From a virus (taxonomy: Duplodnaviria; Heunggongvirae; Uroviricota; Caudoviricetes), in IMG/VR virus record IMGVR_UViG_2718218227_000001: a DNA stretch of 22,234 bases; one strand, written 5' to 3'. Position 1 is the stretch's first letter. Every line of letters begins with the position of its first letter. Position numbers and translations under genes: made by a program. The notes under the pieces were generated by a model that searched no databases, had not been told where the DNA came from, and was given only the letters and a program-made list of their open reading frames with translations. Below are positions 8,258-8,824 of the stretch, one piece after another.

Positions 8258-8824
8258 ATGGCTAAACCAGCGCGAAGACGATGTAACCGTAAAAGAGAAG
8301 ATTTAACTGTTAAAAGGATATTTGAGTTACTAAGTTTCGATAAATCTACCGGGGTATTTAGATGGAAAGTTCCCACTCAGGGAAGGATAGCATTAAATAG
8401 TGTTGCTGGAGCTTTTGATTCCAACGGTTATTCAATGATCATGATAGATGGGCGTAGATATAAAACTCACGTCTTAGTTTTTTACATAACTCATAATCGT
8501 TGGCCTGCTGGTCAAATTGACCACGTTAATGGAATTAGGACCGACAATAGGCCAGAAAATTTAAGAGAATGCCTGCCAATAGAAAATTCAAGAAATATAA
8601 GGATCCGAAAGAATAGCAAATCAGGTTGCAGAGGGGTTACTTGGCACAAACGACAGAAAAAATGGAATGTTAGGCTAGGATTCCATGGCAAGAGTAAACA
8701 CTTCGGATGCTTTGATGATCTGGAGTTAGCGGTACTAGTTGCTGAAGAAGCCCGAGATAAGTATTACGGTGATTTTTCCGGCAACGAAAGGAGCACTTAT
8801 GCGAATCTATCGAAGGAAATGTAA
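8258..8824 (+). CDS. HNH homing-endonuclease-like protein (HNH plus AP2-like domain) carrying a NinG-type N-terminus
   Basis: ATG at 8258 preceded by GGAGGAAGAAGG. Begins MAKPARRRC, which is the lambda NinG N-terminus as I remember it, then an HNH-type segment ([16 protein letters not shown]) and an AP2-like C-terminal region ([30 protein letters not shown]). Overlaps the ninG start. Confidence 0.7.

Follow-up and report, generated by a model that had tools for sequence, protein, structure and literature searches.

The window analysed here is a stretch of 22,234 nucleotides (nt) from the IMG/VR record IMGVR_UViG_2718218227_000001, which includes the nin region of a degraded lambdoid prophage of Escherichia coli O157:H7; its positions 7900-9450 are 100% identical to many O157:H7 chromosomes. 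Between the position of ninF and the recombination gene ninG (rap), upstream of Q, this nin region holds a gene for an HNH endonuclease, whose open reading frame (ORF) overlaps by 26 nt a complete ninG, hereafter ninG'. In E. coli O157:H7 the Prokaryotic Genome Annotation Pipeline (PGAP/RefSeq) calls both coding sequences exactly, as WP_001108081.1 ('HNH endonuclease') and WP_001223948.1 ('recombination protein NinG'), and gives the order at the locus as IS30 remnant, HNH endonuclease, NinG, Ser/Thr phosphatase and Q antiterminator. The features that carry the argument are the following, in window coordinates.

8245-8286, + strand: left homology arm: end of ninF, ribosome-binding region native to ninG, and nt 1-29 of the lambda-type ninG gene
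8258-8824, + strand: HNH ORF, 188 amino acids (aa), ATG start, a chimeric HNH endonuclease
8287-8882, + strand: candidate mobile cassette, 596 nt in place of 64 nt of lambda-type ninG (codons ~11-32)
8522-8524, + strand: codon of His89, the invariant His of the HNH motif, placed by homologue alignment
8788-8793, + strand: AAGGAG Shine-Dalgarno sequence, 5 nt before ATG 8799 and inside the 3' end of the HNH ORF
8799-8882, + strand: foreign ninG 5' end of 28 codons (MRIYRRK...), delimited by alignment and GC content; the presumed cleavage-resistant 'rescue' segment
8799-9410, + strand: ninG' (Rap), 203 aa, ATG at 8799, complete gene
8883-9410, + strand: right homology arm, the lambda-type ninG body

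The translation of lambda ninG (NC_001416 42429-43043) begins with MAKPARRRC, as does that of phage 2B8, and the HNH ORF opens with this canonical NinG N-terminus, as an initial annotation of the window had proposed. The left arm contains ATG 8258 and the codons for MAKPARRRC plus AA, and in local alignment it is identical at 40 of 42 positions to the ninF/ninG junction of lambda and 2B8, far above chance. Residues 1-9 of the HNH protein are ninG codons and are absent from its homologues, and the left boundary of the cassette is constant in all loci that carry the HNH gene (HNH+ loci). Boundaries were taken from local pairwise alignments because a MAFFT alignment of the window, phage AU6Stx1, 2B8 and lambda put the lambda ninG 5' end on the second, ninG' copy. 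In lambda the ninG start overlaps the ninF stop codon. A 38-aa ORF (8149-8265) ending in TEEEGDG overlaps the HNH start in the window, as lambda ninF (ending in EEDDG) overlaps ninG; only its last ~20 nt, from 8245, are ninF-like, so that the O157-type upstream module joins within the final ninF codons.

These contexts determine where translation of the nuclease can begin. Where the upstream context is of the ninF type, as in Salmonella Infantis (L004 in our numbering of loci) and many IMG/VR loci, the HNH frame is closed by a stop codon 39 nt upstream and offers no alternative start, so the HNH protein must initiate at ATG 8258; the sole exception is lambda's adjacent second ATG, present at one locus. 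The O157-type context does contain upstream GTG and TTG codons, and the GenBank entry of AU6Stx1 uses the GTG at the equivalent of window position 8219. As these alternatives are not general, ATG 8258 is the only start common to all contexts, and the chimeric start accounts for the disagreement between annotations (GTG in GenBank AU6Stx1, ATG 8258 in PGAP). With its frame fused to the native ribosome-binding site, ATG and first nine codons of ninG, the nuclease is predicted to be translated from the ninG start.

In the alignment with lambdoid ninF-ninG junctions, homology breaks after 8286 and resumes at 8883 with 95-98% identity; HNH-less phages such as 2B8 match the right arm at 98-100%. The intervening sequence consists of the HNH gene body (8287-8798) and the 5' end of ninG'. 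Its GC content is 37.8% for the cassette as a whole and 28.6% for the ninG' 5' end, compared with 49% for the rest of ninG, a contrast that points to a foreign origin for the cassette. The ninG' 5' end shares ~57% identity, with indels, with lambda-type DNA, and many of the changes are non-synonymous; it nevertheless keeps the EWF/NQ.WC motifs and the N-terminal zinc-ribbon-like Cys pairs (C-x2-C ... C-x3-C), which resemble those of the VT2-Sakai allele. Because the 28 foreign codons join the resident ninG body in frame, a full-length NinG is still encoded (Pfam NinG, 5e-81, profile positions 5-192 of 193; PHROG 171, 3e-115), and the predicted product has the features of the full-length NinG/Rap family, including the N-terminal Cys pairs and a C-terminal His-Me finger. 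The structural conclusion is essentially certain: 64 nt of a lambda-type ninG gave way to a foreign block that supplied the HNH gene along with the opening 28 codons of a foreign ninG.

The initial annotation had described an HNH ORF whose end overlaps a complete ninG by 26 nt, and both ORFs are as it described them. Its suggestion that the host gene was kept by a replacement start also holds at the sequence level, given the AAGGAG, ATG 8799 and the full-length NinG. Two points need revision. The N-terminus that it called an AT-rich variant is AT-rich (29% GC) but is no mutated host copy, being a foreign allele that arrived with the HNH gene; and the proposed insertion into the ninG 5' end has the right site but is not a clean insertion, since 596 nt replace 64 nt.

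A third discrete ninG 5' allele, that of VT2-Sakai (L188, NC_000902 18946-19551), is the closest in form to the ninG' 5' end. Relative to lambda ninG (L003) it has a divergent block from ~nt 21 to ~nt 106, with near-identical sequence on both sides. This block encloses the replaced 64 nt, and the zinc-ribbon block at the ninG 5' end therefore looks like a recurrent exchange or hypervariable segment. NinG' (8799-9407) also gave a weak PADLOC match to PtuB, the HNH nuclease of the Septu system (E ~7e-4, residues 86-147), in agreement with the classification of NinG/Rap as a His-Me finger nuclease (PMC5714182); an HNH-family homing endonuclease would thus be embedded in the gene for another HNH-family nuclease.

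The arrangement of frames could also suggest that ninG is interrupted by a self-splicing group I intron or by an intein, as 8286 joined to 8825 would be in frame and HNH_3 enzymes such as I-HmuI are often intron-encoded (PMC5714182). However, a search of both strands finds no Rfam family at E<=1; the two ATGTAA repeats enclose 538 nt that are almost all ORF, leaving no space for a ribozyme core; and in no register of the repeat do a terminal U of the 5' exon and a terminal G of the intron occur together. The HNH stop codon (TAA 8822-8824), together with a frame that differs from that of ninG' with its own AAGGAG and ATG, excludes an intein. We give this explanation practically no weight. No promoter-like site, terminator-like site or unusually stable RNA structure was found within the cassette or at either start. 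T4 mobE and I-TevI are regulated by a hairpin that sequesters the ribosome-binding site, and with no stable structure at the starts such regulation is not supported here.

The HNH protein combines, over residues ~14-176, an I-HmuI-like HNH_3 domain (Pfam HNH_3, E=4e-11, residues 68-107) with an AP2-fold DNA-binding domain (Pfam AP2, E=2e-4, residues 123-171, a sub-threshold match at 22.1 bits against a cut-off of 33.3), which bears out the HNH nuclease with AP2-like C-terminal region of the initial annotation; it also matches PHROG 99 at 7e-71. HNH_3 plus AP2 is a typical architecture in the I-HmuI group of homing endonucleases (PMC5714182). An alignment of 13 homologous sequences shows D88, H89, N101, L102, R103 and N110 to be invariant (a DH...N...N motif) and gives the window protein ~13 extra residues at the N-terminus and ~12 at the C-terminus, where the last ~9 codons run through the ninG' start region in another frame. 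In the AlphaFold2 model (mean predicted local distance difference test score, pLDDT, 85) residues 1-12 have no secondary structure and residues 178-188 fall below a confidence of 50. The best Foldseek match of this model in the PDB is I-HmuI (1u3e, probability 0.99, sequence identity ~15%), and its C-terminal domain superposes on the plant AP2/ERF domains 1gcc and 7et4 (probability 1.0, root-mean-square deviation 1.1-1.3 Å, ~50 residues). The modelled fold thus predicts a sequence-reading DNA-binding module of the AP2 type.

Copies of itself aside, the protein is nearest to annotated HNH homing endonucleases from Jersey-like Salmonella phages, T5-like phages and others, at ~41-45% identity; they align only from residue 12-16 to ~174, and the homologue search returned no HNH relative between 47% and 98% identity. 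Scanning GTDB species-representative genomes yielded only an unrelated HNH protein of Planctomycetota. Sequence searches of the PDB gave no significant match for the HNH protein (best WRI1 AP2, E=0.19) and no match for NinG, and PADLOC and NCBIfam searches returned no match for the HNH protein. The gene is nearly always intact (17 of 18 distinct sequences), and its polymorphisms, 12 nonsynonymous to 12 synonymous, are in a ratio below the neutral expectation. Judged by its sequence, the protein has the hallmarks of a free-standing homing endonuclease: an intact catalytic motif, no intron or intein, and a presence/absence polymorphism at a fixed site. We also considered an HNH protein associated with packaging, of the HK97 gp74 type found beside terminase and portal genes at the cos end, which is ruled out by the nin-region location and the HNH_3/AP2 family.

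The cassette is found with identical boundaries in the Shiga toxin 1 (Stx1)-converting phages AU6Stx1 and SH2026Stx1. It is also present in a Salmonella Infantis prophage, where the order is ninB-ninD-ninE-x-ninF-HNH-ninG-ninH-...-Q, in 57 IMG/VR contigs, and in 538 of 5426 complete E. coli genomes (536 at 99% identity or more; 571 copies, at most 3 per genome), a collection rich in the enterohaemorrhagic E. coli (EHEC) serogroups O157, O26, O111 and O145. The sources named for the HNH protein cluster are Salmonella enterica and E. coli, to which the NinG' cluster adds E. albertii. Some HNH+ loci carry lesions. In L062/L074 (IMGVR_UViG_2526164629_000012) a 1-nt deletion near window position 8483 creates a premature stop at codon 76 while ninG' is intact, and by its sequence this is a decaying copy of the nuclease gene. 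The ninG body of L019 (IMGVR_UViG_2880361019_000002, ~3796-4565) contains an insertion of ~770 nt with the sequence of window 9054-9062 on both sides, probably an insertion sequence (IS) element with a 9-bp target duplication.

For a count of allele classes, 120 IMG/VR loci were picked with the conserved right flank as sole criterion. Two forms of the ninG N-terminus, and only two, occur in this sample: ~100 loci are of lambda type and 18 of MRIYRRK type, with no intermediates. All 18 MRIYRRK-type loci have the HNH gene, and in 17 of them the exact 30-nt start of the HNH ORF lies at a fixed distance; L091, on the same contig as the HNH+ locus L060, differs inside this 30-nt anchor. Related prophages do lack the HNH gene and have an uninterrupted ninG, which the initial annotation had proposed to check. 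The cleanest case is the IMG/VR pair L055 (filled) and L129 (empty): their flanks match at 100% for 1075 nt on the upstream and 1410 nt on the downstream side, and the 596 or 64 nt in between are the sole difference. At least four ninF backgrounds with HNH+ alleles also exist in HNH-less form.

Filled and empty alleles would also be expected if the HNH gene were ancestral in the nin region and lambda-type ninG had arisen by deletion, and a deletion between the partly homologous ninG 5' copies, which share ATGTAA, would indeed restore an in-frame ninG. The lambda-type 64 nt are not contained in the cassette, however, given their ~57% identity and indels, and no deletion could therefore yield the lambda-type allele. 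Lambda-type alleles are moreover ~5 times commoner than cassette alleles and far more diverse, the GC content of the cassette is foreign, and residues 1-9 of the HNH protein are ninG codons that its homologues lack. This order of events is very improbable, and the version of it that the initial annotation had named as a possible refutation, an ancestral HNH gene sharing no sequence with ninG, is contradicted by these observations.

The cassette is far more uniform than its surroundings. Its copies at ~55 loci share 98.8-100% identity; the adjoining ninG bodies share 88.8-100%, and the flanks upstream belong to classes unrelated to one another. At the nucleotide level, diversity amounts to 0.17-0.44% within the cassette, compared with 1.3% for the left arm and 1.9% and 4.7% for the ninG body, a difference of 4-10 times, and segregating sites number 24 in 596 positions of the cassette against 99 in 528 of the ninG body. 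HNH+ ninG bodies are interspersed among HNH-less ones, and some are identical to them. All four combinations with HNH state are seen at the first scored polymorphism, 33 nt past the right boundary (49 sites in total); the 29 nt between the boundary and the first scored site are fixed by the sampling pattern. A diversity this low beside flanks that are only tens of bases away fits a recent spread, by drive or by sweep, better than neutral shuffling. Such a footprint is consistent with over-inheritance, but it does not separate drive from selection or from ordinary recombination.

We propose, with a probability of about 0.7, that the 596 nt are a homing cassette, built around a free-standing HNH endonuclease gene, which occupies the 5' end of ninG in lambdoid prophages. 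That it spread by means of its own nuclease is what we infer from the family to which the protein belongs, from the clean filled/empty polymorphism and from the presence of a young, near-invariant cassette on many older backgrounds, where exchange has taken place only tens of bases away. The main competing explanation is a passive mosaic module: the foreign block would have been acquired once, through illegitimate and homologous recombination, and then shuffled by general recombination without a nuclease of its own, the HNH protein being inactive or serving another role, for example cutting the DNA of competitor phages without copying itself. Lambdoid phages are highly mosaic and recombine freely, their nin regions are mosaic too, and the VT2-Sakai-type 5' allele fills nearly the same ~85-nt block without any nuclease gene. 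A passive module does not readily account for boundaries that are identical in every locus, for a filled/empty pair that differs in nothing else, or for a diversity that changes 4-10 times within tens of bases. The catalytic motif and ORF are also intact in nearly all copies, with a nonsynonymous to synonymous ratio below the neutral expectation, and the protein family is one of homing endonucleases. We find the passive explanation rather unlikely, though it deserves to be taken seriously.

Several observations do weigh against a cassette that moves by its own nuclease, and two of them directly favor the passive module. First, 49 of 76 HNH+ locus entries (some contigs being entered twice) share a larger O157-type upstream module, which points to exchange at the level of the module, and not to precise homing of the cassette, in those loci. 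Second, HNH+ and HNH-less VT2-Sakai-type ninG coexist in single chromosomes (e.g., NZ_CP017444.1, NZ_CP028654.1, NZ_CP044140.1, NZ_CP028116.1 and NC_013361.1), which implies either that conversion is inefficient in lysogens or that the VT2-Sakai-type allele is no target. A nin operon kept silent in lysogens, or an allele that the nuclease does not target, would lead one to expect such coexistence, which an inactive enzyme would explain as well. General recombination at the conserved flanks, by Red or RecA, could alone place a young allele on many backgrounds. A few HNH copies have changes at invariant residues (P83T, N101S; single loci) or a frameshift. In the window itself neither ninF nor the early region of the prophage precedes the HNH gene, and together with the IS30 remnant this suggests that the window copy of the cassette may be unexpressed. 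Finally, the source of the foreign block did not emerge from our searches. When the N-terminus of ninG' was compared by tblastn with 50,697 phage records, four cassette records matched at 100% and the next at no more than 61%; a word-index search of 5.8 billion proteins recovered nothing beyond fragments of NinG' itself, and phmmer against 1.84 billion representatives gave nothing nearer than lambda-type N-termini. None of these three collections contained a ninG' 5' end without the HNH gene, and the same searches found no donor lineage in which an HNH gene with its own start lies upstream of ninG'.

If the cassette does home, a phage or prophage that lacks the HNH gene would have the 5' part of its lambda-type ninG nicked or cut by the nuclease in the course of lytic growth or on co-induction. 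The damage would then be repaired by recombination, with the ninF/ninG-start arm as left-hand homology and the conserved ninG body as right-hand homology, and the cassette would be copied in. The diverged ninG' 5' end would make the converted allele resistant to the nuclease while keeping Rap function, and would in this way play the part of the cleavage-resistant flanking sequence of other free-standing endonucleases; relative to the empty allele, the sequence beside the HNH gene has diverged by ~43%. It was probably a transfer that founded the element, from a low-GC phage whose own ninG lay downstream of the HNH gene; the right joint would have formed by homology and the left one illegitimately at ninG nucleotide 29, with the frames fused by chance. 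A left joint at a non-homologous position suggests, speculatively, a break in the lambda-type 5' segment that was repaired from a donor homologous only on the right.

A bolder proposal, by analogy, is that of an active natural 'cleave-and-rescue' element, whose nuclease would destroy the wild-type ninG 5' end of competing or co-resident lambdoid phages, including Stx-converting ones, during joint replication, and whose repair would install the nuclease gene, governed by the translation signals of ninG, together with a recoded, cleavage-resistant ninG front. We hold this view tentatively, at somewhat less than even odds. In that case the lambda-type, VT2-Sakai-type and ninG' alleles of the ~85-nt block at the ninG 5' end could record escape at the target site, the cassette would give temperate lambdoid phages their first documented homing element, and it would direct gene conversion beside Q-stx in poly-lysogenic EHEC.

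The remainder of the window offers several further observations. Upstream of the HNH gene lie two features on the opposite strand.

6817-7212, - strand: BamE-domain lipoprotein gene, flanking the IS30 remnant
7155-7910, - strand: truncated IS30-family transposase, C-terminus missing, between the lipoprotein gene and the HNH gene

A perfect hexanucleotide microsatellite, (TATTTC)x12.8, occupies 7987-8063, just upstream of the HNH gene. O157:H7 genomes are 100% identical here apart from the length of the repeat, and their match spans (1515, 1521, 1581, 1587, 1605 and 1611 nt, for a query of 1551 nt) differ by multiples of 6, which identifies 7987-8063 as a variable-number tandem repeat (VNTR) of variable copy number, possibly among the loci used in O157 multiple-locus VNTR analysis (MLVA) typing. 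A second perfect repeat, (GCCAGA)x28.7 at 6474-6645, lies in ORF 5455-6741, where it is translated into a long Pro-Glu (PE) stretch; the product is a hypothetical protein of 428 aa, of which PGAP annotates a shorter 404-aa version in another strain, suggesting length variation. Positions 1-4149 hold two adjacent tyrosine recombinase/integrase genes (1-1206 and 1196-2521) followed by the gene for a 543-aa DNA-binding protein, an unusual trio that forms the prophage end beside ssrA-side chromosomal genes. The region 1195000-1244000 of NZ_CP066756.1 was checked for a second prophage and contained core genes only.

What the cassette means depends on whether its nuclease is active. If it is, a functioning homing element is present in temperate lambdoid phages, as it is in the virulent T4-like phages, and its carriers include Stx1-converting phages and prophages in ~10% of the complete E. 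coli genomes sampled. It would then promote targeted recombination within a few kilobases of Q and stx, on their upstream side, in a region whose mosaicism influences toxin expression. An inactive nuclease would leave the cassette as simply a clear example of a mosaic joint. The locus also illustrates a way for a selfish gene to settle inside a coding sequence with neither intron nor intein, by taking over the initiation signals of the host gene and supplying re-started, diverged codons in exchange. Our literature search found no paper on an HNH endonuclease in ninG or on a free-standing homing endonuclease in lambdoid phages; the arrangement is apparently undescribed, while the gene itself is routinely annotated as 'HNH endonuclease'.

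Each component of the arrangement has a counterpart among known systems. The nuclease resembles the I-HmuI group (His-Me finger group 2, which joins HNH_3 to AP2, NUMOD or helix-turn-helix modules) in its HNH_3 domain, its DH...N...N motif, its predicted fold and its AP2-fold domain; I-HmuI itself, in contrast, is intron-encoded, has another DNA-binding tail and is only ~15% identical to the HNH protein of the cassette. The HNH enzymes of Jersey-like and T5-like phages are its closest relatives, but they lack both the MAKPARRRC extension and the C-terminal read-through tail, and none adjoins ninG. As for the borrowed start, the ORFs of mitochondrial group I introns are fused in frame to the upstream exon. 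There too the endonuclease has no start of its own and uses the host initiation codon, but the host gene is restored by splicing, whereas ninG restarts from a second ribosome-binding site and ATG. The pairing of a nuclease with a linked recoded copy of its target segment, directed against the wild-type allele, is the principle of synthetic 'cleave-and-rescue' and 'home-and-rescue' drives. The analogy is functional only: here too a nuclease is linked to a diverged, presumably cleavage-resistant target segment, but the cassette is natural, its HNH enzyme is protein-guided, ninG is non-essential to the phage, and both targeting and resistance are putative.

The closest parallel in phage biology is provided by the seg and mob genes of T4-like phages, free-standing homing endonucleases that spread by 'intronless homing' (PMC2988022). 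With these the cassette shares a nuclease gene outside any intron or intein, a presence/absence polymorphism between related phages, the carrying along of neighboring sequence, and a presumed mechanism of cleavage of an endonuclease-less genome followed by recombinational repair (PMC2988022). The hosts differ, being T4-like phages on one side and temperate lambdoid phages and Stx prophages on the other, where homing is so far read from sequence. The seg and mob genes are also usually intergenic and have their own starts, whereas the cassette sits within a coding sequence, takes the host start and brings a replacement 5' end. Insertions within genes are nevertheless known, as with mobE in Aeh1 nrdA, mobA in the gene for the T4 topoisomerase large subunit (gene 60 region) and seg43(25) in gene 43 (PMC2988022), and like the cassette they place a free-standing endonuclease gene inside a host ORF while preserving host function. 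In insertions of the mobE/mobA type the host protein is split into two polypeptides that reassemble. In ninG there is no such split: the cassette brings a duplicate, diverged 5' end, so that the downstream ORF encodes a complete NinG and the nine upstream codons are donated to the nuclease.

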